Counted from the first letter of the stretch, positions 293 through 57,095 are shown. The stretch: 64,000 bases of DNA from a virus (IMGVR_UViG_3300042564_003265); one strand, 5' to 3'. Program-made: numbers and translations. The notes: a model not told the origin generated them from the letters alone.

Positions 293-313
293 ACATTATC
301 ATAACAAAATAAA

Positions 314-346: not shown

Positions 347-368
347 TCCATAATCAAACTACTACAAA

Positions 369-518: not shown

Positions 519-524
519 ACAAAA

Positions 525-719
525 ATGGAAACACTTATTATCACATCATCATCACCACAAGGTCTAAATGAGAAAATCGAAAAGTATTACAACGAGGGTT
601 ATAGAGTTGAGGGAAGTCATCAAGTTGTTGAAACACGTCACCAAAATCGTTTTCGTGGTACTCAACACGTTGATACGTTAATTGAACACGAATACTCAGT
701 TACCTTAACAAAGGTTTAA
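525..719 (+). CDS. hypothetical early protein
   Basis: ORF in a plus-strand operon downstream of the promoter at 314. Confidence 0.45.
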   Translation: METLIITSSSPQGLNEKIEKYYNEGYRVEGSHQVVETRHQNRFRGTQHVDTLIEHEYSVTLTKV

Positions 720-7762: not shown

Positions 7763-8399
7763 TGAAGAAATGATTGAGTTATGGAAAAAACTCAACATTG
7801 AACAATGTCTTATGGAGTTCTCTTGTGGTGGGGATAGTATGAACGAAACTGAATTTAAGTTTTTCAACTCAAAGAACGAAGAAGTAGATGGTGAGGAACT
7901 TGAAAGTTACTTTGAAAGTGAAGTATATAATCAAGTTGAGTTTTACGAAGTGTCAGACGGACATTATATGGGTGAGTTTGGTCAGGTGGTAATTACTTTG
8001 GAAGAAGAAGATGGTGAAGAACCTTTCTTTCAGTATGACAAACAATCTCAAAGTGAGTGGGAAGAAAGAGAAGTTCAAGTGATGGAGTATGAACTTACTG
8101 ATAGTGAGGTGAAGTTCCTTACAGAAAAGGTAGATAGTATTGTAGGTGGTGAAGATGGTGAGGCGATTAACTACAAAACCGATTGTGTTCTATCTGATGA
8201 AGAAGAAGAAATTTCTGAAAAGTTATTAAAGGATATTTCTGATACCGCAAATGATTTTGAATTTGAGAATGTTGATGGTGAACAACAAGATTGGTTTATC
8301 TTCACTACAAGAATTGATGATGAAGATGGAGTTATCATTGACGGAAATAAACTATCGGTGGAAGTAACAAGAAATTATTATCAAACAAGAGAAGACTAA
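7749..8399 (+). CDS. highly acidic early protein (candidate DNA mimic / anti-restriction)
   Basis: 216 aa, roughly one-third Asp/Glu and few basic residues, in an early operon. Composition only, no homology claimed. Confidence 0.45.
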   Translation: MKTTNEEMIELWKKLNIEQCLMEFSCGGDSMNETEFKFFNSKNEEVDGEELESYFESEVYNQVEFYEVSDGHYMGEFGQVVITLEEEDGEEPFFQYDKQSQSEWEEREVQVMEYELTDSEVKFLTEKVDSIVGGEDGEAINYKTDCVLSDEEEEISEKLLKDISDTANDFEFENVDGEQQDWFIFTTRIDDEDGVIIDGNKLSVEVTRNYYQTRED

Positions 8400-9829: not shown

Positions 9830-10624
9830 ATGAAACTAACCGATATAATTAACGAGTCACCAGAGAGGGAAGTTGGTGAAGGGGGTTACTCCAGAGTAAT
9901 GACATCTATGAGAGGAGCCGTTCCTAAAATTAAAACCATAGGAATCCTAACCGCCCATAATCCTTGTGCAAATGAACTTTCGCCAGAGGAAAACAATAGA
10001 CGTAATGCTCGACTTGAAAAAGAATTGGGTAGTTACTTATTTGGATACAGGAAGGTGAAGGGTAAGTACGGGACAGAGGAAGATAGTTTCTTGGTAAACA
10101 ACATTACTAAAAAGCAATTGCTGCAACTTGGAAATGATTATGAACAAGAGAGTGTTATCTTTGGTGATTACTTTGAGGAGGGTGAAGAGTATGGTATGAA
10201 CTTCTCAATGATTAGGACTCATACTTGCGACACTGATGAACCGGTTGGTTCTATAATGGGTATCAGAAAAGTATTCATTGACAGAAACAACTCTGATAAC
10301 TTCTACTCCGAGATTAAGGGACGTAAATTCCAAATCCCATTCTTCGAAGTACCAACCTTTGATGATAAAGATGGAACACAGACAGGTGAGAAGTTCAAGC
10401 ATATGTATGATGACCATTATGATAATGCATCGTTTGATGGTGGTAAAGTAGTTGGTAGTATTAGAACATACCCAAACAAAAAAGATGTGGCAGATAAAAT
10501 ATCTGATGAGGACAAGAAAGAGATTGAGAAGTTAAATGACCAATCCTTAAATGAGAATAAGACTTTATCTAACGGATACAATAAAAGAGGTAGGATTATT
10601 AATATCCTTAACAAATATATGTAA
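9830..10624 (+). CDS. hypothetical early protein
   Basis: 264-aa ORF followed by a terminator. Confidence 0.5.
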   Translation: MKLTDIINESPEREVGEGGYSRVMTSMRGAVPKIKTIGILTAHNPCANELSPEENNRRNARLEKELGSYLFGYRKVKGKYGTEEDSFLVNNITKKQLLQLGNDYEQESVIFGDYFEEGEEYGMNFSMIRTHTCDTDEPVGSIMGIRKVFIDRNNSDNFYSEIKGRKFQIPFFEVPTFDDKDGTQTGEKFKHMYDDHYDNASFDGGKVVGSIRTYPNKKDVADKISDEDKKEIEKLNDQSLNENKTLSNGYNKRGRIINILNKYM

Positions 10625-15458: not shown

Positions 15459-15788
15459 TTATCTGTTAAACGCTATACTAAAATCTGATAACCTATGGAA
15501 TATATCTGTTTCTCTATCCTGTCTTTCCCACATATTCTTTAGATACTCAGCATTGGATTTACTTCTAAAATACCATAGAACATCATAGTCAGGTTTGAAT
15601 TTATCCTTATATATTGGGTGAATACATCTTTGTACTATAGTATATTTTGGAGTTACCTTTCTTTCTCCCGTATAGGTATACTTAACAATCTCCTCCTTAT
15701 TCATACTATAGAAGTATTCCCCCGGATATATATAACCGCCGTCGTGGGCCGTTATAATGGGATTCCTTAAGAACTTAAATGGTCTCAT
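15459..15788 (-). CDS. FKF-motif family small protein (N-terminus MRPFKFLRNP)
   Basis: Shares the N-terminal M-[KR]-[PED]-FKF-[FL] peptide with 10 other small ORFs. Confidence 0.5.
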   Translation of the reverse strand: MRPFKFLRNPIITAHDGGYIYPGEYFYSMNKEEIVKYTYTGERKVTPKYTIVQRCIHPIYKDKFKPDYDVLWYFRSKSNAEYLKNMWERQDRETDIFHRLSDFSIAFNR

Positions 15789-16137
15789 TGTTTCTTATTA
15801 CTCCTCTGAATATTAGTGGTCTATCCTTTGGCATATCATCAAAATTATCTTGGTTGTAATGTATCATATTACTTATATCCGCATTGTCCACGAATTCATA
15901 TGCAAATATAATCTTATCCCTGTTCATTTCCATAAATTGATTGTATGAATTGATGTATCTACTATAAACCGACACCGTCATTGATTTTATTTCCTCCGTA
16001 AACACACCATCATTATTTGTCCTTTCCATATAGAATATTACGCCCACCGGTCTATACATCCATTGTAGTTGACCGAGATACCTACTCTCTAACCATCTTC
16101 TTGTTATATTCTTTTGGAAGAATTTAAATGGTCTCAT
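15775..16137 (-). CDS. FKF-motif family small protein (MRPFKFFQKN)
   Basis: N-terminal family motif. Overlaps its neighbours by 4-14 nt. Confidence 0.5.
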   Translation of the reverse strand: MRPFKFFQKNITRRWLESRYLGQLQWMYRPVGVIFYMERTNNDGVFTEEIKSMTVSVYSRYINSYNQFMEMNRDKIIFAYEFVDNADISNMIHYNQDNFDDMPKDRPLIFRGVIRNNETI

Positions 16138-16472
16138 AGTCTTCGTGTTAAATAATCGTAGGTCTCATTTAATATTAGTCGAGCATCCATATGACTTATC
16201 TCATAATCCACACCGGTGATTCCCCTATAACTCAAATAAAGATATCTCCTCACCTCAGACGGACTTGTTATCTGTCCATCCCTAATAAAACCACTCGACC
16301 TATTGTAAAGGTCCCAAGCCGATTGACAATGTATATGACGAATGTCGGTTATCCCGTGATAACGAACATAATGATAGTCCAACCTCCTATTATATTCTCG
16401 AAGAAACTCAATGGTATTGCTACTCACCTCACCACGATTGTTGGTCAAGAATTTAAATGGTCTCATATCCAA
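16134..16472 (-). CDS. FKF-motif family small protein (MDMRPFKFLTNN)
   Basis: N-terminal family motif. Confidence 0.5.
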   Translation of the reverse strand: MDMRPFKFLTNNRGEVSSNTIEFLREYNRRLDYHYVRYHGITDIRHIHCQSAWDLYNRSSGFIRDGQITSPSEVRRYLYLSYRGITGVDYEISHMDARLILNETYDYLTRRL

Positions 16473-16966
16473 TACTGTTGATTGGTTAATCTTAAGAATA
16501 CCGTATAGGTTAGTCTTCCATTATCCTTACTATCACCAAATGATTCCTTTATTCTATGCAACGTGGTTGAAGGATATATCGTTAGTCTATTATATACATT
16601 CTCCACATAATCTATCTCTTCATTCTTATCATTATAAAATGCCGTTCCTGAATTTGGTGGTGGGTTTGGTGTTAAGTATAGAACACCGGCGAAGTCAAAT
16701 ACCCCATCCGTGTGAATAGTATTCGACATATCCTCATTTAATGTATAGTGAAAATAACACCTTAAAAACGAATTATCGAACTTCGGGTTCAACTCTGAGA
16801 GTTTATCCTTTACGAGTTCATATACCTCATCCCCCACCATATTGGTGTATAGACATCTATGTCCCCTCCAACCCGGTGAGTTGGGTTGTGCCTTGGTATA
16901 GGTCAACTCCAACGCATCCTCCCTGACTCTATCAGGGTCATTTAAAAAGTTATCAATTATAATCAT
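16463..16966 (-). CDS. 2OG-Fe(II) oxygenase superfamily protein (P4H/PhyH-like)
   Basis: Start placed at MIIIDNFL... Contains the HxD motif IHTDGVFDFAGVLYLT (the T.LLYLN-type strand of prolyl-hydroxylase-like enzymes) and a distal His in TTLHRI. Confidence 0.4.
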   Translation of the reverse strand: MIIIDNFLNDPDRVREDALELTYTKAQPNSPGWRGHRCLYTNMVGDEVYELVKDKLSELNPKFDNSFLRCYFHYTLNEDMSNTIHTDGVFDFAGVLYLTPNPPPNSGTAFYNDKNEEIDYVENVYNRLTIYPSTTLHRIKESFGDSKDNGRLTYTVFLRLTNQQYWI

Positions 16967-17039
16967 ATACAATAAAATGACAAAGTCGGAAGCAAAACAC
17001 GTCCAAACTCGGAAGTAAAAACGTGACAATCTCGGTAAT

Positions 17040-17345
17040 TTAGTCCACGAAGATGTACCTCGAATCCTTATAATCCCTTCTTGCCTGTTGTTCTTCCTTC
17101 CAATTATTTATAATATCCTCCGCCTGTGACTTGTGTTGAAATGGGTATGAACCCGATTTCCATACCTTGAATGGTAATGGAAAGTAATTTGTTTTATACC
17201 ATACCTTTTGTTGTGGCAAATAATAGGTTGTCCCATTATATACCCACGACTCAATACGATACTTCGGTTTTCCTTCTGTTGTCATCACTCCCAATAACAA
17301 CGATATTAATATAATAATCCTTTTCATTATATGTAAAATATACAC
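17040..17345 (-). CDS. small secreted protein (signal peptide)
   Basis: MKRIIILISLLLGVMTTEG signal-like N-terminus. Confidence 0.45.
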   Translation of the reverse strand: MYILHIMKRIIILISLLLGVMTTEGKPKYRIESWVYNGTTYYLPQQKVWYKTNYFPLPFKVWKSGSYPFQHKSQAEDIINNWKEEQQARRDYKDSRYIFVD

Positions 17346-17361
17346 AAAAATTCTTATTATA

Positions 17362-17667
17362 TCAAATTATATCAGGGAAATTCCACATCGGATGGTTAGA
17401 TTCTATTCTTTGTCCTTGTACCGTATTCCCCTCCTCAATATGTCTGAATAACATATGTTTATATGGTGTTAACCAAATAGGGTCAAACATAATTTGGGTC
17501 ACATCACAGAACACAAACTCATCCGTGTTATAATACTCAGGGTCTGTCGGTTCTAATGGTCTGGTTGGTTCTGTTGTTATCCCACCGAGAAAATAATCAT
17601 CCATCTGGTCCATCCAGTTGGAGAATACTCTCTCCGGTTTGTTTTGGAAGAATTTAAATGGTTTCAT
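17362..17667 (-). CDS. FKF-motif family small protein (MKPFKFFQNKP)
   Basis: N-terminal family motif. Confidence 0.5.
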   Translation of the reverse strand: MKPFKFFQNKPERVFSNWMDQMDDYFLGGITTEPTRPLEPTDPEYYNTDEFVFCDVTQIMFDPIWLTPYKHMLFRHIEEGNTVQGQRIESNHPMWNFPDII

Positions 17668-17888
17668 CGTCTGTTTAATTGTCTACCCATTGCAGAATTT
17701 GTTGATAGATAGTATTCATAACTCATCCTAAACTTTCTCTGTGTCTCCTGAACCGTATATACAAAATGATTCTGCAACATTCTGGTTACAGTACAATAGT
17801 ACCCACGATAATGAAACGATGAACCAATATCTAGTCGACACCTATTCTCATAAGGATTCCTACGAAAGAACTTGAACTCACTTACCAT
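17664..17888 (-). CDS. FKF-motif family small protein (MVSEFKFFRRNP)
   Basis: N-terminal family motif. Codons differ from the paralogs (ttc aag ttc ttt). Confidence 0.45.
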   Translation of the reverse strand: MVSEFKFFRRNPYENRCRLDIGSSFHYRGYYCTVTRMLQNHFVYTVQETQRKFRMSYEYYLSTNSAMGRQLNRR

Positions 17889-18343
17889 ATGTTTAATATT
17901 TTTGCAATAACTGAGGAAACGATAATTGTTATGAGTGTTGACAAAAAGATAATCCCAAATACTTCGTCACTTTGTAACAATATCTTTTGAAAGAACATTT
18001 TTATCTTCGTCTTCCAATTTGGATTTACTCTTGTTACTCTTGGACCACCGGTAAAGAATGGAATATAATCTATGTTGCCGTGATTATCATTATGAACTAT
18101 TCCTGTTGGTTGAGTAGTTTCAAAACGTCTTAACTCCCTATCATAGAAATATCTTTCCATTTCATTATTATTAGGAGGATTACGAAGTCTATCATATAAC
18201 TCACGGTCTGTGTGATATAAACGTCTTCTGTAAACGTGACCATCAGGAGTATCGGCATTGAATGATGCAGTTGCTCGAGTCATCCCCTCCAACATCTGTG
18301 GGTCATCCAATGTTCCCTTCTGAAAAAATTTGAACTCCTTCAT
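17882..18343 (-). CDS. FKF-motif family protein with a C-terminal TM helix (MKEFKFFQKG)
   Basis: N-terminal family motif. C-terminal IIFLSTLITIIVSSVIAKILNIW. Confidence 0.5.
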   Translation of the reverse strand: MKEFKFFQKGTLDDPQMLEGMTRATASFNADTPDGHVYRRRLYHTDRELYDRLRNPPNNNEMERYFYDRELRRFETTQPTGIVHNDNHGNIDYIPFFTGGPRVTRVNPNWKTKIKMFFQKILLQSDEVFGIIFLSTLITIIVSSVIAKILNIW

Positions 18344-18519
18344 TAACGTAAGAATTTAAATTCATTTATTGTTGGTTTCGGTACATCCTCAACAACAATA
18401 TTTTCTAAATAATCAATATAATCTTGTGTCATTGTTATCATTTCACTATACGTTTTATAAAAATCATATAATGAAAATGATAATGTAAGAGGTTCTGTAC
18501 TTATTTCTTTCATATCGTT

Positions 18520-18759
18520 CTATGTGTTAACATCTGGTGTTTCCGCAAACCAACCATCATCAAATATTAGTTTACTTCCGTTGCTTATTAAGTTTCTTCT
18601 GGTCCAATTATCTCTAGGGTTACCCATTCTAAAATTCAATACTCCACAAACGAATAACTCCCTTTGATAGTCTGTATTGTATTTGTTAGGTACAATGATT
18701 TCTCTCCCATCCTCTGGAATAAAAACAAATCCATTTCTTAAAAATTTAAATGGCTTCAC
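18520..18759 (-). CDS. FKF-motif family small protein (GTG start; V/MKPFKFLRNG)
   Basis: Start moved to GTG so the family motif is N-terminal. The track ORF starts 33 nt upstream at an ATG inside the preceding gene. Confidence 0.4.
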   Translation of the reverse strand: MKPFKFLRNGFVFIPEDGREIIVPNKYNTDYQRELFVCGVLNFRMGNPRDNWTRRNLISNGSKLIFDDGWFAETPDVNT

Positions 18760-19057
18760 TATATTGAATTTGTTCTTCAACAATCTCATCAATCATCGGT
18801 TGGTTCTCCAACTCCTCAATAACAATATTAATTGCTTCCGGATAATTGGTGTGACCTTTTTGGAAATAGATACCTGCAAGGCCTAATACTTCATTGTTAA
18901 TGTAGTGACGGTTCTTACCCTTACCATTCACAATTTCGTGGTCCATTGACACATCATCCCAATCTTCCAACACACACCTATGTCCACCTTTTATTTTGTA
19001 ATGTAATCTCACAATATTATTGTGAGAAAATTGTTTGATGAATTCCCCTAATTTCAT
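18746..19057 (-). CDS. hypothetical protein
   Basis: ORF. Confidence 0.45.
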   Translation of the reverse strand: MKLGEFIKQFSHNNIVRLHYKIKGGHRCVLEDWDDVSMDHEIVNGKGKNRHYINNEVLGLAGIYFQKGHTNYPEAINIVIEELENQPMIDEIVEEQIQYSEAI

Positions 19058-19387
19058 TTAAAAATTTTTAATTAGTCCAAATAAAAAACTGATTTGTACT
19101 TTAATACCTTGTCCCCATTCTATATAAAATAATGGGTGGCCATAATTGATTTCTAAAAAAGAAACCCAACTTCTTCCTACTTTGTAGTAGTCAAAAGCAA
19201 ATAGCTCAATGTTTAATCTCATTTTACTTAATTTTAATCTGTTATGTCAACGTGAAAAAATAATGAATCCCATTTCGAATGTGCAAGAAAACGTGAACCG
19301 TCTTTACATTCATAAAGATTAACATCTCGACCATTTACAACATCAGTAAATCGACGACTAATGAATTTTGCAAATAGTCTTTTCATT

Positions 19388-19648
19388 TTACAATTGTTGC
19401 ACTTTTAACATTACATCTGTAACATCTTCAGGTCTTAACCAACCAATCACATCTTCAGTGATGGGTGTGTCGTATGTTAAATCACCGTTTTCATTTAAAA
19501 CTGCCAATTCATATAGTCCTTTATCACCACCATAAGAATAGTCGTGTTTAACAACTGAAACCCCATACCCATTATCAAAAAAAGTACGAGACACAACACC
19601 ATTATTGAATGAGTGTGGTTTAAATTCTAAGTCTTTAAATGTTTTCAT
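19388..19648 (-). CDS. small conserved protein, paralog of 24187-24465
   Basis: KTFKDLEF ... GVSV ... GLYEL ... Y.TP ... VTDVMLKVQQL is shared with the ORF at 24187. Confidence 0.5.
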   Translation of the reverse strand: MKTFKDLEFKPHSFNNGVVSRTFFDNGYGVSVVKHDYSYGGDKGLYELAVLNENGDLTYDTPITEDVIGWLRPEDVTDVMLKVQQL

Positions 19649-19653
19649 ATGTT

Positions 19654-19824
19654 TTAGTTTTTGTCTTCTTTAATTGATTGAGCAAGAAAAAATAAAAAAA
19701 AGAAAGTGGTTAACGCCCATCTATATGGTTCAATCGGCGTGTTAAACTTATATTGGGATGTAACGTATCCACCCAAGACAAATGCTTGTAGGTATGTTAC
19801 TAACTTAATTAAATTCTTTCTCAT
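19654..19824 (-). CDS. small membrane protein
   Basis: Internal start MRKNLIKL... chosen to avoid overlap. Hydrophobic C-terminal half. Confidence 0.35.
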   Translation of the reverse strand: MRKNLIKLVTYLQAFVLGGYVTSQYKFNTPIEPYRWALTTFFFLFFLAQSIKEDKN

Positions 19825-19825
19825 A

Positions 19826-20020
19826 TTAATATCTTCTTTTAATAAACCAAAAAAATGAATTCGGTGATGAACCAATTCTAACTTGTTTTCTATGTTTACC
19901 CGGTTGGTATTTGTTTTGTGATAAGTTGTGATGTCTCATACCCGCACCGTTTATGTGTAACATCGGATTACAAGATACCAAAAATATTCCAGTTAATAAC
20001 AAAAAAAATATTCTTTTCAT
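19826..20020 (-). CDS. small secreted or membrane protein
   Basis: N-terminal signal-like MKRIFFLLLTGIFLVSC. Confidence 0.4.
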   Translation of the reverse strand: MKRIFFLLLTGIFLVSCNPMLHINGAGMRHHNLSQNKYQPGKHRKQVRIGSSPNSFFWFIKRRY

Positions 20021-20118
20021 AATTTAAAATTTACCCCATTGAGATTTGTGTCTGTTTTCTTCGGCAATCTTAAACCCTAACCATATTTCTTTGAAGAATG
20101 ATTTTATTTTATTCATAA

Positions 20119-20361
20119 TTAATATTTGTTTTTTTCTGATTTACCTAAATGTATTCGACCTTTAACAGTTCCATTAAAATTATCCTCTTCAATATTTCTA
20201 TCAACAATCAATGATGTACCATTTAGACTTATCATTTCTTGAAGTGTTTTCTTTGCAATTGAATTGGCATATTTTCTTTTGTGTTTGGTATTATCAGCAC
20301 CTAACAATGGTGCTTCAAATTCAACCTCCAACTCTAAATTAACTGTGTACTTAAATAACAT
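20119..20361 (-). CDS. hypothetical protein
   Basis: ORF with its own promoter at 20366-20396. Confidence 0.45.
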   Translation of the reverse strand: MLFKYTVNLELEVEFEAPLLGADNTKHKRKYANSIAKKTLQEMISLNGTSLIVDRNIEEDNFNGTVKGRIHLGKSEKNKY

Positions 20362-20365
20362 AGGA

Positions 20366-20396
20366 TAAAGTTATTACTTTTTTGGAATATTCCAAA
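20366..20396 (-). promoter_or_regulatory. Bacteroidetes-type promoter on the minus strand
   Basis: Reverse complement reads TTTGGaatattccaaaaaagTAATAACTTTA immediately upstream of gene 20119-20361. The core TTTGGAATATTCCAAA is palindromic. Confidence 0.45.
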
Positions 20397-20636
20397 TTAA
20401 TTTTTAAAAATATTAATCATAATACCCGCTGACCCCGAAGAGACGGTATAATTGTTAAATCTATTGTCATTAATCCACCCGAAGTCCTTGAATCTGAATA
20501 TGATACACAGTTTTCCCTCAAACGTTGCATATATTGCATTGTCTGCGTAGTCTATAGATGGGTGTTGGATGTGACCCATTTTCCAACTATTTCTAAACTC
20601 TTCTTCTAATTCATCAGGTGTGATTAGTATTGTCAT
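20397..20636 (-). CDS. hypothetical protein
   Basis: ORF. Confidence 0.4.
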   Translation of the reverse strand: MTILITPDELEEEFRNSWKMGHIQHPSIDYADNAIYATFEGKLCIIFRFKDFGWINDNRFNNYTVSSGSAGIMINIFKN

Positions 20637-20938
20637 AGGTCTTCTTCTTCGGTGAATTTATAATATTCAATTAATAATAGGTCTGAAGTAATATCAAATC
20701 CCCAACCATCATCATAACGACTAACACCGGTGTGTATCCTACCGTTACAAGTAATTGATTTAACAACCGCAATAAAATTATTAGGAAATTGATTTAAAAA
20801 TTGGTGAATGCCTTGATACTCCTCTACCACCGTGAAACAGTTAAGACCGTTCAAGTTCACAAATGTATCGAACATCCAACTCGGTGAGTCGTCTAATTCT
20901 AATTCATCACCGTTAGAGAAAAATTTGAAGTCCTTCAT
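20633..20938 (-). CDS. FKF-motif family small protein (MKDFKFFSNG)
   Basis: N-terminal family motif. Confidence 0.5.
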   Translation of the reverse strand: MKDFKFFSNGDELELDDSPSWMFDTFVNLNGLNCFTVVEEYQGIHQFLNQFPNNFIAVVKSITCNGRIHTGVSRYDDGWGFDITSDLLLIEYYKFTEEEDL

Positions 20939-21085
20939 ATTATAAAATATAATGAAGAAAAATTAAAATTCCAAAAATATATTATTAAAATAATATAGCT
21001 TTTATAATATGGTAAAGTAAGATACCTCCGGTCCAAAAAACCAAAGTACCAACACCTATAGCAATAATTAGAAATATAATTCTTG

Positions 21086-21778
21086 CTATATTTTCTTTTT
21101 TGTTTGTATCCATTGTTTGATTATTTTATATAAATCTTTTGCCAATTCTTTATGTCCATCTTCTGAATAATGACCATCATTCATTACACCTAACGTTTCG
21201 AGTGTTAGAGTTTCGTAATTATATAACGGAATCACATCTTCAAAAAAACTTTTAATATTCTCATCATCTTTCTCTCGACTTAAATCTGAAAAATACCAAA
21301 AGACAGGACAGATTTCCTCACCACAAATCTTTTTTATTACTTTTGTGTAGTTGGAAACCTCTTTATAATATATACTTGAGGAATTACGATTCACCCCAAT
21401 TTCCTCTAAACTTTTTTCGGACACAAATCTGTTGGGAGATTTACAACCGGCCTGAATCATCACCTTCTCAAACTTGTTGTTGTCATCTGCGATTCTGAAT
21501 CTGTTTGGATATGTCCAGTTGACGATTACGATATCCCCATCCTCAATTTTATCCATAACTTCTATGAAACTATGGAATATTTCATCATTAGAATTACCGG
21601 CAGATGCAAAGATTTCTATGTGACAATTTAATTTATCTCTAATAATTTCACCATAAGACAATGGTGAATAACCTTTCCAAATGTGGTATCTAACCCTATA
21701 ATCAACAGGGTCGTAAAGTTTCGCGTCGAAGTCACTAAACCTCTGACTGAATGAGTCTCCGAATATCCAAATTTTCAT
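21086..21778 (-). CDS. SGNH/GDSL hydrolase family protein, paralog 1
   Basis: Block I at the N-terminus (MKIWIFGDSFSQRF) and block V DxxH near the C-terminus (DGHYSEDGHKELA). Confidence 0.55.
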   Translation of the reverse strand: MKIWIFGDSFSQRFSDFDAKLYDPVDYRVRYHIWKGYSPLSYGEIIRDKLNCHIEIFASAGNSNDEIFHSFIEVMDKIEDGDIVIVNWTYPNRFRIADDNNKFEKVMIQAGCKSPNRFVSEKSLEEIGVNRNSSSIYYKEVSNYTKVIKKICGEEICPVFWYFSDLSREKDDENIKSFFEDVIPLYNYETLTLETLGVMNDGHYSEDGHKELAKDLYKIIKQWIQTKKKI

Positions 21779-22384
21779 TTATAACGAATGTATTCTAGTG
21801 TTTATTTCTTCATAAAATTTATCAGCCACAATCTGATTCCCAACCTCATCGAACATATTATCAATTACAGTTGCACCATTCTCCTCAAAATATTTAACCA
21901 AACAAGTTGTCGATTCATTACACAAGTAACTTCTCTTAGACTTAAATGATGGTCTGGCAGGATAAATCAATCTATCCTCATTACTCGACCAAAAGAATAG
22001 ACTAAATCTTTTTGTTTTAGCCAACTCATCTAAAATATTTTCATAGTAATAAATTTGTTCACACCATTTCTCCGATTGTCTATCTCTTGTGAGATTTTCA
22101 ATAAACAAAGAATCAATGTGTTCATCTCCTAAATCGTTTATATCATAACTAACAAACTCATTGTCTACCGCCATTCTGAAGTTAGTAACTTTACCCCAAC
22201 CAACAATCACAATATCATTTGAATTAATTAAATCACATACTCCACAAAAATCGTCGAATATTTGATAGTTGCAAGTTTTATTTTTCGATAAATTCTTAAC
22301 TTCATATCCAAACTTATCTCCCAATAATTTGGTCCAACTACTTGAACTAAAACTATCACCAAATATCCAAATTACTCTATTCAT
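21779..22384 (-). CDS. SGNH/GDSL hydrolase family protein, paralog 2 (possibly degenerate)
   Basis: VIWIFGDSFSSS N-terminus. Block V reads DNMFDEVGNQ with no His. Confidence 0.45.
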   Translation of the reverse strand: MNRVIWIFGDSFSSSSWTKLLGDKFGYEVKNLSKNKTCNYQIFDDFCGVCDLINSNDIVIVGWGKVTNFRMAVDNEFVSYDINDLGDEHIDSLFIENLTRDRQSEKWCEQIYYYENILDELAKTKRFSLFFWSSNEDRLIYPARPSFKSKRSYLCNESTTCLVKYFEENGATVIDNMFDEVGNQIVADKFYEEINTRIHSL

Positions 22385-23130
22385 ATTAATTTTGGTTTTA
22401 ACTTTTCTGAAATTTCTTTATAAAAAACTTCAGCTTGTATTTGATGTCCAATTTCTCCAAAGTGAACATCTTTAACCTCTCCTTTAGTTTCCACTTCGAT
22501 TTTCTTCGCACCTTTTTTTCTAATTAGGTGGGTTATGGTATCGTCAACAGAATCGCTACACAAATATCTTCTTTTATTTTTAAAATTTGAGGGTTCATTA
22601 TAAATAACTTCGGAGTCACTTGACCAAAAAAATATATCAAAACCTTTAAACTTTGATAGTTCTTCCATAACATCCTCTCTAAAATATATTTCCTCAACAT
22701 ATAATCTATCAGTTCTTTCCACCAAAAGAAAATCCAACACATCAGTTGTCATAAATGATGTTGTATCAACATTGGTGGTCATATTTGGGAGGACTGACAT
22801 AAATTTCGGTAACCCTCTCTCATCATATACTGCAGCTCGAAATCTTGATATTTGTGTCCAACCTACAATAACAATATCACCTTTAGAAATAAATTCACAA
22901 TTATCACAGAACTCTCCAAAAATATGGTCATTAGATGCACCACCCATACCTTTGTTTTCGACCTCCATACCTAACATTTTAGATAGTCTAGTTGGCCAAA
23001 TATCGGGTAGGGTACCACCTAACCATTCTCTATATAATGTATAATTGTTTTTGGTTCCATTTGCATTTATAGATTGGACAGGATGATATTCCGCAGTGTA
23101 ACTACAACCGAATGTCCACAATTTACTCAT
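22381..23130 (-). CDS. SGNH/GDSL hydrolase family protein, paralog 3
   Basis: MSKLWTFGCSYTAEY (G-C-S replacing G-D-S) and DVHFGEIGHQIQAE. Confidence 0.5.
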   Translation of the reverse strand: MSKLWTFGCSYTAEYHPVQSINANGTKNNYTLYREWLGGTLPDIWPTRLSKMLGMEVENKGMGGASNDHIFGEFCDNCEFISKGDIVIVGWTQISRFRAAVYDERGLPKFMSVLPNMTTNVDTTSFMTTDVLDFLLVERTDRLYVEEIYFREDVMEELSKFKGFDIFFWSSDSEVIYNEPSNFKNKRRYLCSDSVDDTITHLIRKKGAKKIEVETKGEVKDVHFGEIGHQIQAEVFYKEISEKLKPKLI

Positions 23131-23875
23131 TGTATAAATTGTTTCTATAACGATTTATATCTCTTAAAAAATATTCAGCCATCACTTTATGACCTACCTC
23201 ACCATAATGTTCATCATCTGGTAGTTCTCTAAGAGTTTCCTCGTGAAAACTTTTCGCACCATATTTGCGTAAAAATTTAGTCATATCAGTATCTGCTTCA
23301 GGAACCAAACACTTGAACTTTAACTTAAATTCTTTGTCTTCTTTATTTATGATATGTTTATCTGCCGACCAAAAATACAATTCAAATTGTTTGGCAAGAC
23401 TCAATTCTTTTATCAATTTCATAAAAGAATACACCTCATCACACCAAATCATATTGGTTCTATTAACCAATATTTGTTGCATAACTTTTAAATCGTATTG
23501 AATATGACTATGTGCTTCGGATGGAATTACAGAAACCCATTGGTGGTACCTTCCCATATTATTATTAACAATATCGAAACGTTCTTTTCTTGACCACTCA
23601 ATAATTACAGTGTCTCCCGATTGAATTCTATGACAATTTGCAACGAATCTATTGAATATTCGGTAATTAGAGAAACCGGGATATCCCATATTTTCTTTCT
23701 CTAAACCTAATTCTCTTGCGACAATAGTTGGCCACACATCAGTAACTTCTCCATTTCTTAAATTTCGATATCTGATGTTGTTATTCTCATTCTCTTCACT
23801 TTGGCCGGGTTTAATATACGATGTGAAATCGTACTCCGCAGTGAAACTACAACCAAATGTCCACAATTTACTCAT
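23123..23875 (-). CDS. SGNH/GDSL hydrolase family protein, paralog 4
   Basis: MSKLWTFGCSFTAEY and DEHYGEVGHKVMAE. The four paralogs 1-4 are tandem and overlap each other by 4-8 nt. Confidence 0.5.
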   Translation of the reverse strand: MSKLWTFGCSFTAEYDFTSYIKPGQSEENENNNIRYRNLRNGEVTDVWPTIVARELGLEKENMGYPGFSNYRIFNRFVANCHRIQSGDTVIIEWSRKERFDIVNNNMGRYHQWVSVIPSEAHSHIQYDLKVMQQILVNRTNMIWCDEVYSFMKLIKELSLAKQFELYFWSADKHIINKEDKEFKLKFKCLVPEADTDMTKFLRKYGAKSFHEETLRELPDDEHYGEVGHKVMAEYFLRDINRYRNNLYNE

Positions 23876-27604: not shown

Positions 27605-28096
27605 TTACTCTGTGATATTATGGTTTCTATCCCATTTAGCCTTTCTTGCTTCAGGAGACAATAAATGACTTTCATCAATTGTATGAGGTATTTGTGCCCT
27701 GATACAAGTTTGTGGTAATCTTGAATTCATTAGGTAGTTATTAATATACCCCATCATATTCGCCGAACCGATTGGGTTAGCCGAATGTATGTAAATTTGT
27801 GGTAATGGAATCTTTTTATTCATACTTTCTGCAACCAACCATTTACAACAATCGTACCCGGTCTTTTCGTTAACTATGTTTTCATAGTTTAATGTGTAGT
27901 TGTTCTTTACATTAGTATAATATTCCACCATTGACTCTTCACCTAAATCGTGGTCTAAAGATATTACTTCAAAGTTCTCCAAACCTTCTAATCTTATTTT
28001 AGTTACAAACTCTGTGTAGTTTCTTACCACAACCCAGTCACCCTCGGTTGGTGTTCTTACGTCATCAAGATATAAGAATATTTTCTTTTTAGTCAT
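27605..28096 (-). CDS. receiver-like domain protein, candidate CPR (cyclic-phosphate-processing receiver) domain
   Basis: N-terminal FLYLDDVRTP and a VISLDHDLGEE motif. Overlaps the RNA ligase gene by 8 nt (translational coupling). The CPR assignment rests on remembered family motifs and operon context only. Confidence 0.35.
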   Translation of the reverse strand: MTKKKIFLYLDDVRTPTEGDWVVVRNYTEFVTKIRLEGLENFEVISLDHDLGEESMVEYYTNVKNNYTLNYENIVNEKTGYDCCKWLVAESMNKKIPLPQIYIHSANPIGSANMMGYINNYLMNSRLPQTCIRAQIPHTIDESHLLSPEARKAKWDRNHNITE

Positions 28097-29285
28097 CTTT
28101 TTTAAATGGTTTTGAATATTTTGGATATAGGTTTTTCCAAATCAATTCGGAACAATCCTTCCCATCCAATAATTTAAACAAAATAGATTGTATTTCCAAA
28201 TTTTGTTTCTTTATTATTTCGGCAGATTCTTTTCTTGTCATCTCAGGAGTGATATATTTCAAGAACGCCATCTCTGCCATTGTTTTAGTAATGACGAACA
28301 TTTGATTAAACTTATATTCTTCATTTTTAACCCAATCATAAAACTCATCAGGAACTTTATCTAATATCTCATCCATTGGTTTACCCGCTCTCAAATATTC
28401 CCATATGTCTCGATTAGATATGTTAGTTAAAATTCTATGAAGACGTTTGTATTCTTCTCCTTTGATTTTCATACGAAATCCATTTTTAAAACGGATTACA
28501 TAACCTTCTCTATCGTTACTGATTTCTTCTTTAAGTAAATCATAACCCTCACCCCAAGTTTTATAAACAGTAACAATGTTTAACTTCAAATTCTTTATTA
28601 AATTTTTCAATCTAATATCTTCATTGTTATCATTATGAATGTCCACTTCATCTCCTGTTGGTGTGTGTATCATTCCTAATAAAACCAAGTCTTCAAAATT
28701 GTAATTGCAAACTATTCTATTCTCGGGATAGATGATTTCAAATAGATAAGTGTAATCTTTAACTAGTCTATTGTAATCGTACTTCTCTAATAACTCTCTC
28801 CCTTTAATTGCTTGTGTTGATGTAAATGAACCTCTAGTTGCTAAAACCCACTCACCTTTTGTTTTTGGTGTTGGTTCATAATACGGGTCATCAAAATCAG
28901 GTAAATTGTTCGGGTCAAAGAACCTTTCCATACCTGTTTCATAATTGTTGTTAAACCAAATGTTATATCTCCTCTCATCACTCAATTCTTCTTCATAATA
29001 AAAAAGAATACCTAATGAACCGTCCATTTTTTCATATACAACAAAATCTTCGTTAGGTATTTCTTCTGGTTTATGTTCTTCGTAGTTAAAAAACTTTTTG
29101 AATGGTCTAGCAACAATTTCACCTTTTGAATTTGTAACCAATCCTCGACATTGCATAGTTATCTCATCCCACAACTTTTCATACTGAACCCTTGGTGAAT
29201 AATTCCAAATGGTTAAGTCTAAGGTTGGGTGTGTTTGTTTATGTAACAAACCGTCCTTGTGATATTTTTCTAATGTCTCTATCAT
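28089..29285 (-). CDS. ATP-dependent RNA ligase, Rnl1 (T4 RnlA)-like
   Basis: Nucleotidyltransferase motif I KxDG in VVYEKMDGSLGILFYY, resembling T4 Rnl1 KEDGSL. 398 aa. Coupled to the flanking phosphoesterase and receiver-like genes. Confidence 0.55.
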   Translation of the reverse strand: MIETLEKYHKDGLLHKQTHPTLDLTIWNYSPRVQYEKLWDEITMQCRGLVTNSKGEIVARPFKKFFNYEEHKPEEIPNEDFVVYEKMDGSLGILFYYEEELSDERRYNIWFNNNYETGMERFFDPNNLPDFDDPYYEPTPKTKGEWVLATRGSFTSTQAIKGRELLEKYDYNRLVKDYTYLFEIIYPENRIVCNYNFEDLVLLGMIHTPTGDEVDIHNDNNEDIRLKNLIKNLKLNIVTVYKTWGEGYDLLKEEISNDREGYVIRFKNGFRMKIKGEEYKRLHRILTNISNRDIWEYLRAGKPMDEILDKVPDEFYDWVKNEEYKFNQMFVITKTMAEMAFLKYITPEMTRKESAEIIKKQNLEIQSILFKLLDGKDCSELIWKNLYPKYSKPFKKDD

Positions 29286-29938
29286 TCTTTCATATGTTGT
29301 AACAAATCAATGTGGTGGTCTAATGCACCTAATTCGGAACCGGTTTTAAGTTTCTTTAATGGATTTAAACATTCCTTTAACAAATCATAAGGTCTGAATT
29401 CAGGGTGACCATCCATACCAACATCCATTCTTCTACCATTACTTATCTTAACTGCGTGTGGTAGATGACAATGTCCGTGTAAGTGAACCCTACCCTTACG
29501 AAGACCATTCCAACTTGATATTGGATAGTGCATCATTTCGATAGTCTCTCCTTGATATTGAAATTGTTCAAACCAACTCACACTTAAGAATAATCTTTTA
29601 ATGTTCTCTCTGTTTCTATCTATGTGATGGTCGTGGTTACCAAGAATAAGATGTATGTTCTTACATATTAATCTATCATAGAACTCTTCTATTTGTTCAA
29701 ATCCTCCGAATGACCAATCACCTAAATGAATTAGTACGTCATCCTGACCAACAACTTCATTGATGTTATTAACAATTGCACTATTCATTTTTTCTAAGTT
29801 TGGGAAATCTCTTGTCTGTGATTCAGGTAATGAACCATCGGGCATTCTCCAAGCAGTTACACCACGACATATGTTTGTGTGGTTATAATGTGTGTCGGAT
29901 GTTATCCAAACTTTTATATTATTTTCTATTTTTATCAT
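29282..29938 (-). CDS. calcineurin-like metallophosphoesterase
   Basis: All MPE motifs present: D-x-H (SDTHYNH), GD (HLGDWSFGG), GNHD (ILGNHDHH), GHxH (LHGHCHLPH). Confidence 0.8.
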   Translation of the reverse strand: MIKIENNIKVWITSDTHYNHTNICRGVTAWRMPDGSLPESQTRDFPNLEKMNSAIVNNINEVVGQDDVLIHLGDWSFGGFEQIEEFYDRLICKNIHLILGNHDHHIDRNRENIKRLFLSVSWFEQFQYQGETIEMMHYPISSWNGLRKGRVHLHGHCHLPHAVKISNGRRMDVGMDGHPEFRPYDLLKECLNPLKKLKTGSELGALDHHIDLLQHMKE

Positions 29939-30237
29939 CCTCTAAAAAATTTAAAATCTTTCTTTTCTTTTTTAACTTGTGATATTGGTGGTGGAGGTGG
30001 TATCGTAAAACCACGAGCTCTTATATGTCTATCACTATTCATATAATTCTTAATCGACTCCTCCTGAGTCCTTTCTTCGCTGACATCTTTCATAATTAAT
30101 GCCAATAATGGACCAAATAATAATGAAAGAATAACCACTTCAAATTTTAACTTATAATGTTTTTTATGATGGTACATTACATATGTTGCGGATGTCAGTT
30201 GAAAAACTATTAGTACAAAAATTAATTCATTACTCAT
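29935..30237 (-). CDS. membrane protein ending in a C-terminal FKF motif (…KKDFKFFRG)
   Basis: Two TM helices and a PPPPP linker. C-terminus matches the FKF family peptide, and the stop overlaps the ATG of the phosphoesterase gene. Confidence 0.4.
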   Translation of the reverse strand: MSNELIFVLIVFQLTSATYVMYHHKKHYKLKFEVVILSLLFGPLLALIMKDVSEERTQEESIKNYMNSDRHIRARGFTIPPPPPISQVKKEKKDFKFFRG

Positions 30238-31026: not shown

Positions 31027-31461
31027 TTATAACTTGACATTGAAACGGTCTCTCATTTGTTTAACCTTTTCATCAGGTACTCCGTGAACATTCTCCCCTC
31101 CGTGGCGATTCTCAACAATTAACGTGTGAACACGATATTTGTATCTTTCCGCAATTTCAAAGTACTTCTCCATCTCCCATTCTTCGGTAAAGGTGTTGGC
31201 TACGACGATTCGACTGAACTCGTTCTTCATTCTCTCCGCACATTTCAACAGACAATCATTGTGGGCTTCTTTTAATTTTGTAGCATCAAAATTATAGGTT
31301 CCCTTTTCGTTTAGAAAGAAGTTGTCTGCCGATAAAACATCGGGATTATCACCTCTCACACATCTTAAAATAACCTCACCAACGGTGGTCTTTCCCGAAC
31401 CGGGAACACCCCTCAATAAGATTAATTCACCGATATATTCAATTTCACTCATAATACTCAT
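31027..31461 (-). CDS. P-loop kinase, polynucleotide 5'-kinase-like (AAA_33 / T4 Pnk kinase-domain type)
   Basis: Walker A LLRGVPGSGKTTVGEV. 144-aa single-domain kinase sitting with the RNA ligase and phosphoesterase. Confidence 0.5.
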   Translation of the reverse strand: MSIMSEIEYIGELILLRGVPGSGKTTVGEVILRCVRGDNPDVLSADNFFLNEKGTYNFDATKLKEAHNDCLLKCAERMKNEFSRIVVANTFTEEWEMEKYFEIAERYKYRVHTLIVENRHGGENVHGVPDEKVKQMRDRFNVKL

Positions 31462-41661: not shown

Positions 41662-42077
41662 ATAAGTAAATTTGTGATGTCGTTACCATCCTTATATATG
41701 TCAAGATACCCCACGACCTTGGGTATCTTTTCGTTATTCTCAAATTCAGTTGTTTTTGGCATCATACCAACCACCCATTCAGGTTCATTAATCTTCGATA
41801 GATTAAATGAAAAAATACCTTTAGGTGTTGAATTAATATAATATACGGACCCTTTCTGAATAAGGGAATCCCATTTTATTTTTTCTATCAATAAATCAGA
41901 ATAATCCGCTCGTCTACATTTTAGTTCGTAAATCTTTTTTCTTACAACACTAAACGCATCCGTCGGATTAAATTGGTCAGTCTTTTCCAAATCAGGAATC
42001 AACTTATCTTTAATAAGGTTGAAAAGTGATTCCTCATTAAGTCTAATAAGGAATCTTTTCTTTTCAAAGGGGGTCAT
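41655..42077 (-). CDS. hypothetical protein
   Basis: ORF. Confidence 0.45.
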   Translation of the reverse strand: MTPFEKKRFLIRLNEESLFNLIKDKLIPDLEKTDQFNPTDAFSVVRKKIYELKCRRADYSDLLIEKIKWDSLIQKGSVYYINSTPKGIFSFNLSKINEPEWVVGMMPKTTEFENNEKIPKVVGYLDIYKDGNDITNLLIC

Positions 42078-42358
42078 TATCTCAAGTATTTAAATTTCTC
42101 AGCAAGGCTGTTTATGAAATTTTCTTCCTCAAGAGATAGTAGGTCTCTACACTTTGCTAACTTATGGAGATTGTCCCAAAATCTTTGGTCATTAATGTTT
42201 GGTCGACGAACACCATTGTTACCATTTTTGGTGGCTTGGTCGGGTTCAATATCTCCATCCTCGATTAAGATTTCAATTAATCTAGCTTTTTCTCGTTGAC
42301 TACAAGAGTCTACAAACTCACTTGGGTCAATGTCTACTTCTGCTGTAAATTCAGGCAT
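42077..42358 (-). CDS. hypothetical acidic protein
   Basis: ORF. Confidence 0.45.
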   Translation of the reverse strand: MPEFTAEVDIDPSEFVDSCSQREKARLIEILIEDGDIEPDQATKNGNNGVRRPNINDQRFWDNLHKLAKCRDLLSLEEENFINSLAEKFKYLR

Positions 42359-55375: not shown

Positions 55376-55376
55376 T

Positions 55377-56624
55377 ATGAAACCATTTTTATTATTTAGA
55401 GGACCAGTTAAAACAAGAAGTGGATATGGTGCACATTCGAGAGATTTATTACAAGCACTATATGAAATGGATATATTCGAAATTAAGATTGATAGTTGTA
55501 TGTGGGGGGTAACTCCGATGACTGCACTCGAAAAGGATAATCAATTCCATATGTGGATAGAATCAAACATTGTTAGGTCACTCAATACCACACCCGACAT
55601 CTATGTTCAAGTTACTGTACCAAATGAATTCGAGAGAAAAGGAAAATTTAACATAGGAATTACTGCAGGTATTGAGACCACGGTCGCTCCTAAAGATTGG
55701 ATTGACGGATGTAATAGAATGGATTTAATCATTACTACATCGAAATTCTCAAGAGATGTTTTATTATCAACAGTTTACAATGAGAATGAAAACAACACAG
55801 GTAAGTTAGTTAAACAATATAAGATAGAGAAACCGGTCGAAGTATTATTTGAAGGTGTTGATGTATCCATTTTCAATAATGAATTTAAAGGTATTGACAT
55901 TGATATAGAAGAAGACTTTGCATATTTGTTTGTTGGTCATTGGTTAAAGGGTTCACTTGGTCAGGATAGAAAAGATGTTGGTATGATGATTAAATGTTTT
56001 ATGGAAGCATTTAAAGATGAGGAAGACAAACCCGCATTGATTTTAAAAACATCATCAGCAACTTTCTCAGTTAAAGAAAGAGAAAATATGAGGAGAAAGA
56101 TTGAGGACATTACAAAGGGTTATGAAAATCCTCCATCGGTTTATCTATTGTTTGGTGAGTTAACGAACCAAGAAATGAATGAACTATACAATCATCCAAA
56201 GGTTAAGTCTATGGTGTCAATAACTAAGGGTGAAGGATTCGGTAGACCTCTATTAGAATTTTCAATGACAGGTAAACCAATCATCGCATCGAATTGGTCA
56301 GGACATAAGGACTTTCTTCCAATGGATAAAGCAATTATGATTGGTGGGACATTAACTGATGTTCACGAAAGTACTGTGGATAATTTCATTCTTAAAAATT
56401 CCAAATGGTTTACAGCAAACTATAATGAATTTGCTGAAGTGTTAAAATTAGTTAAGAAAGATTATCAAGAGTTTAAAGAAAAGTCTGAATTGTTAAGAGA
56501 GGAAAATAAGGAAAAGTTTTCTTTAAATAATATGAAAGAAGTATTCTCTAATTTACTTAAACCATACACAAATAAACCAAAAGAGCATAAATTAGTTCTA
56601 CCTAAATTAACAAAAATTAAATAA
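55377..56624 (+). CDS. glycosyltransferase, GT4 (group 1) family
   Basis: KGEGFGRPLLEFSMTGKPIIAS signature. Confidence 0.65.
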   Translation: MKPFLLFRGPVKTRSGYGAHSRDLLQALYEMDIFEIKIDSCMWGVTPMTALEKDNQFHMWIESNIVRSLNTTPDIYVQVTVPNEFERKGKFNIGITAGIETTVAPKDWIDGCNRMDLIITTSKFSRDVLLSTVYNENENNTGKLVKQYKIEKPVEVLFEGVDVSIFNNEFKGIDIDIEEDFAYLFVGHWLKGSLGQDRKDVGMMIKCFMEAFKDEEDKPALILKTSSATFSVKERENMRRKIEDITKGYENPPSVYLLFGELTNQEMNELYNHPKVKSMVSITKGEGFGRPLLEFSMTGKPIIASNWSGHKDFLPMDKAIMIGGTLTDVHESTVDNFILKNSKWFTANYNEFAEVLKLVKKDYQEFKEKSELLREENKEKFSLNNMKEVFSNLLKPYTNKPKEHKLVLPKLTKIK

Positions 56625-56884
56625 TGTCATTTAAATTTTTAAGAGGAGAAGAATACTTTACGACTTTAAATTTAGAACCGACACAAGTTTTATCATTACG
56701 ACCTCATAGATTTATCGATAATGTTGAATTTTGTTTTCAGTTTAATGATGAGGAACCAGTTGTATTTGCTACAGGCCCAAACGAATGTCATATAACAATA
56801 AACCCAACAGTTGATGGCAATATGACATTCACCGATAACGATAGAACATTTAAACTATTCGCAAGAGAAAGAGAAAATGATTAA
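56624..56884 (+). CDS. FKF-motif family small protein (MSFKFLRGEE)
   Basis: N-terminal family motif, on the plus strand within the glycosyltransferase cassette. Confidence 0.45.
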   Translation: MSFKFLRGEEYFTTLNLEPTQVLSLRPHRFIDNVEFCFQFNDEEPVVFATGPNECHITINPTVDGNMTFTDNDRTFKLFAREREND

Positions 56885-57092: not shown

Positions 57093-57095
57093 AAT

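Follow-up and report, generated by a model that had tools for sequence, protein, structure and literature searches.

x-F-K-F-[FL], a portable terminal peptide tag on unrelated small proteins of one large-phage clade

Why should a series of small, otherwise unrelated phage proteins share one short peptide at their termini? The question is raised by a stretch of 64,000 nucleotides (nt) from an uncultivated large phage (IMGVR_UViG_3300042564_003265), called here the window, in which a first-pass annotation had noticed small open reading frames (ORFs) that opened with nearly the same residues. The peptide, x-F-K-F-[FL] (hereafter the tag), proved to be a portable terminal tag on many unrelated small proteins of one large-phage clade. 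It was located usually at residues 4–7 and, less often, at the extreme C-terminus after a flexible linker, and is apparently an undescribed address label.

Occurrence of the tag in the window and in related phages

Copies of the tag were located by an ORF listing and a six-frame scan of the window. F-K-F-[FL] was present within the first 4–8 residues of eight minus-strand ORFs (15459–20938) and of two plus-strand ORFs (56624 and 56877). These ten copies, and the C-terminal copy of a membrane protein at 29935–30237, were all at the positions claimed in the first-pass annotation, which had spoken of nine minus-strand ORFs and listed eight starts. Two of its start codons were revised. The ORF assigned to a TTG at 16472 more likely begins at the ATG at 16466, giving MRPFKFL, and the ORF at 18759, read as (V/M)KPFKFLRNG, retained its tag copy with GTG as the start codon. 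GTG starts were also present at tagged genes of the related contigs L004 and L048, which follow the same upstream gene as 18520–18759 and belong to another family.

Further copies were added to those reported earlier. A 56-amino acid (aa) protein on the minus strand (18343–18513) ended with NEFKFLR-stop, and its homologue L065_2266 was also tag-ended. A 93-aa protein on the minus strand (42077–42358) ended with the variant AEKFKYLR-stop. A putative N-terminal copy, MNETEFKFF (7839–8399, plus strand), can be included only on the assumption that translation begins at the internal ATG; no homologues of this protein were found among the related-contig loci collected. In addition, GPFKFFQKLP was encoded at 52625–52654 (plus strand), antisense to a methylase gene and with no start codon nearby; this seven-residue tag match is probably due to chance.

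FKF[FL] occurred 13 times in the 19,640 residues encoded by a set of non-overlapping ORFs, against 0.63 expected, which represented an enrichment of about 20-fold. All 13 copies were at protein ends (11 N-terminal and two C-terminal), and with the C-terminal FKYL variant the tagged proteins of the window totalled fourteen. Under a strict rule, nine N-terminal copies were observed, against a mean of 0.045 and a maximum of 2 in 2000 residue shuffles of the same proteins. The enrichment over a shuffled proteome, on which the earlier proposal of a signal depended, was thus confirmed.

Viral contigs were then searched with a degenerate DNA pattern for M-[KR]-P-F-K-F-[FL]. The pattern matched 71 contigs, many of them 97–335 kb long, with tandem arrays of 12–17 tagged ORFs within 6–14 kb. 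Long array-bearing contigs included IMGVR_UViG_3300032313_000682 (316 kb) and IMGVR_UViG_3300042391_000634 (335 kb). The N-tagged proteins collected from the window and related contigs numbered 124, with lengths of 52–189 aa, and gave the logo M-[KR]-[PDET]-F-K-F-[FL]-[QRSK]-[KGN]-[NK]. The residues F, K, and F were essentially invariant, Lys being kept in 123 of 124 proteins and replaced by Arg once. F at position 4 together with F or L at position 7 was found in 78 of 124, and the same pattern shifted by one residue in 33. The residue before the first F was P, D, E, or T, with Q in 6 of 124. Furthermore, beyond the family of the membrane protein at 29935–30237, at least five more unrelated families were tagged at the C-terminus, some of them soluble and some with an N-terminal transmembrane (TM) segment.

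When the tag was trimmed, the proteins fell into 36 BLAST clusters, mostly with one orthologue per phage. Profile comparison of the 19 larger clusters by hhalign (171 pairs) gave 92.6% for one pair, 58% for another, and less than 17% for the rest. With 36 clusters and one or two related pairs among 171, ordinary paralogy was rejected as far as profile comparison reaches, full-length homology being undetectable, and the fast-diversifying paralogue family offered earlier as an alternative had to be abandoned. The accompanying statements, that the proteins cannot be aligned by eye beyond the motif and that a shared N-terminal tag is carried by diverse small proteins, were upheld by the trimmed clusters.

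The tag was restricted to one lineage. No tagged gene was present in the head-module loci of phages with related gp23-type capsid proteins (two sets of about 1.2 Mb and 0.96 Mb, in all about 2.1 Mb) or in about 1.08 Mb of tail-fibre and modification-enzyme loci of the tag-bearing clade itself. When 185,579 species-representative bacterial genomes were scanned for one common tag variant, two chance hits and no arrays were obtained. Single-copy pattern matches in viral contigs were almost all signal peptides or internal Met residues, that is, chance, with L024_1541 as a single-copy match that does belong to a tagged family. When the array and four window proteins were compared with GenBank phages by blastn and tblastn, no useful cultured relative was obtained. 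With Pfam and PHROGs, only one tagged protein, the mini-capsid protein described below, could be placed in a family. The literature and family libraries searched held no description of the tag, and FKFF returned only the synthetic cell-penetrating peptide (KFF)3K. The first-pass annotation had likewise not recognised a described family.

Selection acts on the peptide. In the window, copies of the 12-nt tag core differed at third codon positions only, and Leu was encoded by TTA, CTA, and CTC. In the 124 tagged genes, the use of TTT or TTC for Phe and of AAA or AAG for Lys was near the proportions in the rest of the same genes, and Leu at tag position 4 was encoded by TTA, CTA, CTC, TTG, or CTT. 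Codon use at the tag was at background, and selection is therefore on the amino acids, as the first-pass annotation had argued from codon variation; two-base Leu changes were among the differences. It is extremely improbable that FKF is only the incidental reading of a nucleic-acid element, for example an enhancer of translation start or a slippery site. The core TTTAAATTYTT is AT-rich and located at gene junctions, as such an element might be, but this explanation was largely refuted already by the codon data of the window and the 124 genes. Only third codon positions vary, the frame is fixed, TTC AAG TTC and CTC variants exist, and the C-terminal copies are kept as peptide. Rfam and tRNA scans of the window gave no matches, and thus no family for a nucleic-acid element.

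The DNA of the tag had a second property. When phages that share an upstream gene but carry different tagged downstream genes were compared, DNA identity was 93–100% up to the start codon (80–85% in the L064 pairs), 76–95% over the start codon and tag, and 17–36%, which is random, directly after the tag. Identity dropped to random exactly after the tag, so genes appear to have been exchanged there, and by this comparison the tag coding DNA is shown to be the joint at which gene cassettes swap between phages. Fusion proteins combining two tagged families occurred, and tandem C-terminal and N-terminal tag copies were present at some gene junctions. One natural fusion, at L026:~260–701 (minus strand), joined the body of the INWQLTGLL family to a C-terminal segment from the 15459–15788 family.

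The exchange resembled the hypervariable internal-protein loci of T-even phages. It was also similar to CdiA VENN/Rhs orphan cassettes and T4 mobile promoter cassettes, in which a short conserved boundary sequence is the joint for module swapping. Unlike in polymorphic-toxin and T4 promoter cassettes, each cassette here was a complete gene with its own start codon, and the conserved element was translated and selected as peptide. Breakpoints exactly at the tag, and tandem copies at some junctions, would also be expected if the peptide were functionless, either a scar of fast-diverging paralogues or a sequence kept only as a recombination joint. This view is highly improbable and was largely refuted already by the codon data, in which synonymous codons vary freely, including the two-base Leu changes, while the residues are fixed. 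In addition, the families are unrelated by profile comparison, and the C-terminal tag of the 29935–30237 family is kept in every listed homologue, although these genes are not in arrays.

Placement of the tag relative to fold and membrane

Most tag carriers were soluble, and two conserved families had a TM helix. For the C-tagged membrane protein (29935–30237), 120 homologues with 35–99% identity were listed, on contigs of up to 330 kb such as JGI Ga0620986_00500 (330 kb), and [DEN]-F-K-F-[FL] was found within the last 2–14 residues in 120 of these 120. The C-terminal tag was preceded by a variable Pro-/Arg-rich linker, and basic residues were located directly after the N-terminal TM segment. 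Because of these basic residues, the tagged tail should be cytoplasmic. The tag and stop codon had been described as abutting a phosphoesterase gene, and the stop codon indeed overlapped the ATG of a Metallophos gene; the same order, with the C-tagged membrane-protein gene directly upstream of a metallophosphoesterase gene, was observed in the window and in both homologue loci examined (L285 and L286). An SPFH/Band 7 (stomatin/HflK-like) protein was encoded at 31493–32440 (minus strand) and also near the C-tagged membrane protein in the 330-kb relative L285. One homologue of the C-tagged membrane protein was found in a metagenome-assembled genome labelled Bacteroidota.

The second membrane-anchored family (17882–18343) had the reverse arrangement. 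Its 153-aa window protein carried the C-terminal TM segment that had been claimed for it, and an N-terminal tag with a C-terminal TM segment was present in 10 of 10 members (the window protein and nine orthologues). In both families the tag would be on the cytoplasmic side of the membrane.

In the soluble 109-aa protein (15459–15788), the tag was kept in 112 of 120 listed homologues. Four homologues had single tag substitutions (FNFL, FTFL, FIFL, and LKFL), and two began after the tag. The AlphaFold2 (AF2) model of this protein, based on a 119-sequence alignment, was composed of a sheet-plus-helix domain with an overall predicted local distance difference test (pLDDT) value of 87; no informative neighbour of the fold was found in the PDB or BFVD. 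The pLDDT value was above 93 for residues 11–90 and 67 for residues 1–10. The tag, which formed a short helical turn at residues 5–7, packed against nothing. The model shows the tag to lie outside the folded domain, and a terminal segment that is invariant in sequence and unstructured as modelled is the signature of a docking motif.

Candidate partners and destinations of the tagged proteins

In T4, the internal proteins are a diverse set that shares only an N-terminal propeptide of 10–19 residues (PMC3012670, PMC9026906). The targeting determinants are residues 4 and 7 of MKTYQEFIAE (Y4 and F7), T4 Alt has a C-terminal propeptide too, and gp21 was long expected to have one (PMC9026906). The reading that we prefer, tentatively and at less than an even chance, is drawn by analogy: the tag would be the functional counterpart of the T4 capsid-targeting sequence. 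One common, phage-specified partner, preferably the prohead scaffolding core, would dock all tagged proteins. The soluble proteins, which are probably accessory or anti-defence factors, would be loaded into the capsid and would leave it along with the DNA on delivery. At the cytoplasmic membrane, the assembly would be held by the two membrane-anchored families, a tagged capsid-protein fragment would bridge core and shell, and the tag would stay uncut, unlike in T4.

The tag and the T4 capsid-targeting sequence of IPI, IPII, IPIII, and Alt have several features in common. In both, a short N-terminal peptide with an M-K start is shared by otherwise unrelated small proteins, the cargo set varies among related phages, and residues 4 and 7 stand out as aromatic positions, here as F4 and F/L7; the likeness is one of residue pattern only and not of sequence. 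The differences are that the tag is without an [LI]-x-E cleavage site, is also found at the C-terminus and on membrane-anchored proteins, and marks 11–17 or more genes per locus, against 3–4 in T4. Because the cleavage site is absent, membership in the T4 capsid-targeting family proper is not supported. Thus the T4 analogy of the first-pass annotation was retained for the position 4/7 pattern and the diverse cargo and was not retained for protease cleavage.

Support for a capsid partner came from the 71-aa mini-capsid protein (56877–57092), in which the tag was fused to a gp23-type capsid-protein fragment. It matched Pfam Gp23 with an E value of 4.5e-6 over the strand and spine helix, and tblastn matched it to the major capsid proteins of the distant T4-like phages Microcystis Mel-JY01, Flavobacterium immuto, and Rhodothermus RM378. 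The family comprised 49 small proteins, and all 32 that were inspected started with x-x-FKFF-[HS]-G. The gene was always flanked by two GT1 genes and the tagged 86-aa protein on one side and by GT2 and epimerase genes on the other, and the order in the window cassette (54020–60455) was GT1, GT1, tagged 86-aa protein, mini-capsid protein, GT2, and epimerase. The place of the mini-capsid gene in a glycosyltransferase cassette may indicate that the capsid is glycosylated or that the protein serves as a capsid-protein decoy. Furthermore, the lineage-specific occurrence of the tag, with its absence from the related-capsid head loci and, as arrays, from the species-representative genomes scanned for one variant, speaks for a partner encoded by the phage rather than for a universal one of the host.

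Several observations weigh against capsid targeting. Over the 10 residues that follow the tag, [LI].E had a density of 0.013, compared with about 0.015 elsewhere, and no prohead-protease site was evident. Signal-anchored membrane proteins, which cannot themselves be packaged, were among the carriers. The array was located behind a host-type promoter and amid early-type accessory genes, no large enzyme carried the tag, and no tagged gene adjoined a capsid gene at any capsid gene sampled. The AF2 model of the mini-capsid protein was a helix only, with a pLDDT value of 60, and was uninformative on the tag. A T4-type protease and scaffold in this clade is an assumption, the gp23-derived mini-protein being the only such component seen. 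When the head module of the clade was sought, a capsid-protein alignment scan gave only immuto-like contigs, a rightward walk from the window gave tail-fibre and modification-enzyme genes and no head genes, and ranking by capsid fragment from the same sample gave contigs without a demonstrable link to the clade.

The promoter-like sequences of the window were of host type. TTTG(G) and TAnnTTTG separated by 19–21 nt, which we take to be the Bacteroidota promoter type, were present in most intergenic gaps, including the gap before the first array gene, and suggest early transcription by the host polymerase. The motif also preceded 4113, 4332, and 6100 on the plus strand, and three near-identical promoter cassettes of about 40 nt (atttggtagttaaataaaactatattacttttaca) were observed in the plus-strand block. 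The T4 late promoter TATAAATA was not enriched (8 against 10.5 expected), and a sigma-70 consensus scan was uninformative.

Early promoters of host type would suit a tag that binds a hub of the host, either a ring- or clamp-like protein by strand addition or an AAA+ unfoldase/protease, in which case the tag would be a signal, common to the early proteins, for their degradation or timing. The terminal placement of the tag at either end, after a flexible linker and outside the fold, and its position on the cytoplasmic side of the membrane-anchored members are consistent with this proposal. The bacterial clamp-binding pentapeptide QL[SD]LF, which is found at N- or C-termini and binds its hub by strand addition, has the same x-Phi-x-Phi-Phi spacing. 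This likeness in hydrophobic spacing and extreme-terminal placement extends to PIP boxes. A host hub is nevertheless rather unlikely. The tag is restricted to one lineage and is missing from the related-capsid head loci, dozens of different proteins on one host site would be unusual, and a host hub gives no rationale for the capsid-fragment family. In addition, the conserved Gln of the clamp motif is missing, a fixed Lys is in the middle, and the tag is carried by small accessory and membrane proteins rather than by enzymes of replication or repair. Among cultured phages, immuto is the nearest in capsid-protein similarity; it has PolA and DnaB and offers no gp43 or gp45 for comparison. Its annotated 1–50 kb, which bears these replication genes, is without a T4-type clamp, and the T4 gp45 analogy is unsupported. 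When the tag was held against the consensus Q-L-[SD]-L-F itself, P, D, E, or T preceded the first F, Gln was found at that position in 6 of 124, and the middle Lys was fixed.

The tag might also bind itself. F-K-F-F strands would zip, and the tagged proteins would co-assemble on a platform nucleated at the membrane by the two anchored families. Peptides of alternating Phe and Lys are strong strand formers, the tag is unstructured in the AF2 monomer, and no separate partner would be needed. Self-binding would account for the use of either terminus and for membrane anchors as the most conserved tagged families. However, a homotypic contact of four residues is weak, and the strict preference for Lys over Arg is not obviously explained, which makes this arrangement quite unlikely.

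The same preference, with Lys kept rather than Arg in 123 of 124, would be expected of a covalent-modification site at the invariant Lys or a neighbour, for example one hydroxylated by the DUF6445 protein and possibly then glycosylated. The DUF6445 protein (16463–17029) was resident in the arrays of six phages including the window, with 67–79% identity within the arrays of L007, L028, L040, L046, and L284, and was far more conserved than the surrounding tagged genes. It appeared by eye to be similar to 2-oxoglutarate (2OG)-Fe(II) oxygenases by its HxD...H pattern, and no relative was found among solved structures or in NCBIfam. Two tagged proteins are fixed in the glycosyltransferase cassette, and several further 2OG oxygenases are encoded by the clade. 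The link of DUF6445 to the tag is a conjecture from gene neighbourhood, the protein is without a characterised relative, and there is no evident need for the same modification on 36 unrelated proteins; a modification site is accordingly very unlikely.

A generic amphipathic membrane-targeting peptide, as in MinD, FtsA, MreB, Noc, and SepF, would likewise be terminal, basic, and aromatic. The N-terminus of Noc is MKHSFSRFFG, which the tag resembles, and the helical turn at residues 5–7 of the AF2 model is compatible with such a peptide. This too is a remote prospect, since lipid-binding helices tolerate exchanges of K and R and of hydrophobic residues, whereas F-K-F is invariant here. The tag is only 4–7 residues long and is also carried by proteins that already have a TM helix. 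The loose sequence conservation of a membrane-targeting helix was not found in the tag, with F, K, and F invariant and K changed to R once in 124.

Encapsulin cargo-loading peptides were compared as another known system. Such a peptide is short, stands at the C-terminus in most cases and at the N-terminus in some, follows a flexible linker, and loads diverse cargo into an HK97-fold shell. The Pro/basic linker before the C-terminal tag and the position of the N-terminal tag outside the fold are similar. Encapsulin peptides bind the shell protein of a compartment that is bacterial and not of a phage, and their consensus is rich in Gly, Ser, and Leu, whereas the tag is F-K-F-[FL]. Assignment to this system was rejected on the tag sequence and on the Pfam scans of the window proteins, in which no encapsulin family turned up.

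Returning to an assembly built by the phage, the observations can be combined in a plug-and-play scheme, which is possible and, taken whole, doubtful. A strand-forming tag of four residues, at either end, would send dozens of interchangeable proteins, including the two anchor families and the capsid fragment, to a single assembly of phage origin, which would be the inside of the prohead or a membrane-bound platform, and the tag DNA would be the joint at which they are traded.

Features and neighbouring genes of the window

The window, with a G+C content of about 33%, belonged to the accessory part of a large-phage genome. It contained an RNA-repair module, a thymidylate synthase, DNA methylases, the SPFH protein, cell-wall hydrolases, the glycosyltransferase cassette, and tail fibres. 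The tagged genes and related features are listed in Table 1.

Table 1. Tagged proteins and associated features of the window
Feature	Position	Strand	Basis
N-tagged protein, 109 aa, MRPFKFLRNP	15459..15788	-	ORF listing; homologues; AF2 model
N-tagged protein, 120 aa, MRPFKFFQKN	15775..16137	-	ORF listing; 7 orthologues in related contigs
N-tagged protein, 110 aa from ATG 16466, MRPFKFLTNN	16134..16466	-	ORF listing; clustering
Untagged DUF6445 protein within array	16463..17029	-	Pfam PF20043; HxD...H pattern
N-tagged protein, 101 aa, MKPFKFFQNK	17362..17667	-	ORF listing; clustering
N-tagged protein, 74 aa, MVSEFKFFRRN	17664..17888	-	ORF listing; clustering
N-tagged tail-anchored membrane protein, 153 aa, MKEFKFFQKG, C-terminal TM helix	17882..18343	-	ORF listing; TM segment
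C-tagged protein, 56 aa, end NEFKFLR-stop	18343..18513	-	Stop overlaps ATG of next tagged gene
N-tagged protein, 79 aa, GTG start, (M)KPFKFLRNG	18520..18759	-	ORF listing
N-tagged protein, 101 aa, MKDFKFFSNG; first gene of array	20633..20938	-	ORF listing; clustering
Bacteroidota-type promoter-like sequence (TTTGG, ~20 nt, TATATTTT) upstream of array	20939..20985	-	Motif; function putative
C-tagged membrane protein, 100 aa, N-terminal TM, Pro-rich linker, end KKDFKFFRG-stop	29935..30237	-	Homologues
Variant-tag protein, 93 aa, end AEKFKYLR-stop	42077..42358	-	Motif count
N-tagged protein, 86 aa, MSFKFLRGEE, in glycosyltransferase cassette	56624..56884	+	Synteny conserved in L162-L167
N-tagged mini-capsid protein, 71 aa, MIKDFKFFHG and gp23-type strand/spine-helix segment	56877..57092	+	Pfam Gp23
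Putative N-tagged very acidic protein, 186 aa, MNETEFKFFNSK	7839..8399	+	Longer ORF from 7749 would make motif internal

The RNA-repair set (27605–29938, 31027–31461, and 39601–40203) comprised cREC_REC, a T4 RnlA-type RNA ligase, a metallophosphoesterase, an AAA_33 kinase-like protein, and HAD_SAK_2, and probably counters host anticodon nucleases. Proteins with SGNH/GDSL-type N-termini (e.g. MKIWIFGDSFS and MSKLWTFGCS) were encoded by four tandem paralogues at 21086–23875 and by two further copies at 49878–50525 and 52777–53475 (all on the minus strand); homologues in related contigs matched Lipase_GDSL. A thymidylate-synthase homologue of 364 aa (48417–49511, minus strand) matched a 266-position profile end to end and had about 100 extra residues. 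A C5-cytosine methylase and an N6/N4 methylase were encoded near it (43080–44066 and 52072–52773, minus strand), and the phage may modify its own DNA. The protein at 9830–10624 (plus strand) had DUF3293 and S-adenosylmethionine-lyase-like matches, and that at 40500–40925 (minus strand) was AdoMet-decarboxylase-like; both may deplete S-adenosylmethionine or serve polyamine metabolism.

Beyond the right end of the window, L289:1–9700 (about 73–83 kb in window terms) encoded a Nol-like carbamoyltransferase, a tryptophan-halogenase-like protein, three 2OG-Fe(II) oxygenases, and a kinase, a set of modification enzymes that is unusual for a phage. These genes adjoined the tail-fibre genes and were followed by a 496-aa protein that was 62–100% identical in 80 viral contigs.

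The tag provides a concrete case of a translated motif that doubles as a recombination joint for modular gene exchange, and a directly testable handle toward its partner and destination. As a readable label of four residues, it would make a whole class of accessory proteins, which may be injected anti-defence factors, recognisable in metagenomes from the sequence alone. If the assembly were the capsid, the tagged proteins would far outnumber any other known set of injected proteins that bear a readable signal, and candidates for injected anti-defence proteins could be listed directly from metagenomes. The tag would then exemplify the principle of T4 capsid targeting a second time, independently and in a distant lineage, and would differ from T4 in the missing cleavage site, the use of either terminus, and the inclusion of membrane anchors. 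A tag that loads capsids would also serve cargo-loading engineering in phages of Bacteroidota-like hosts.

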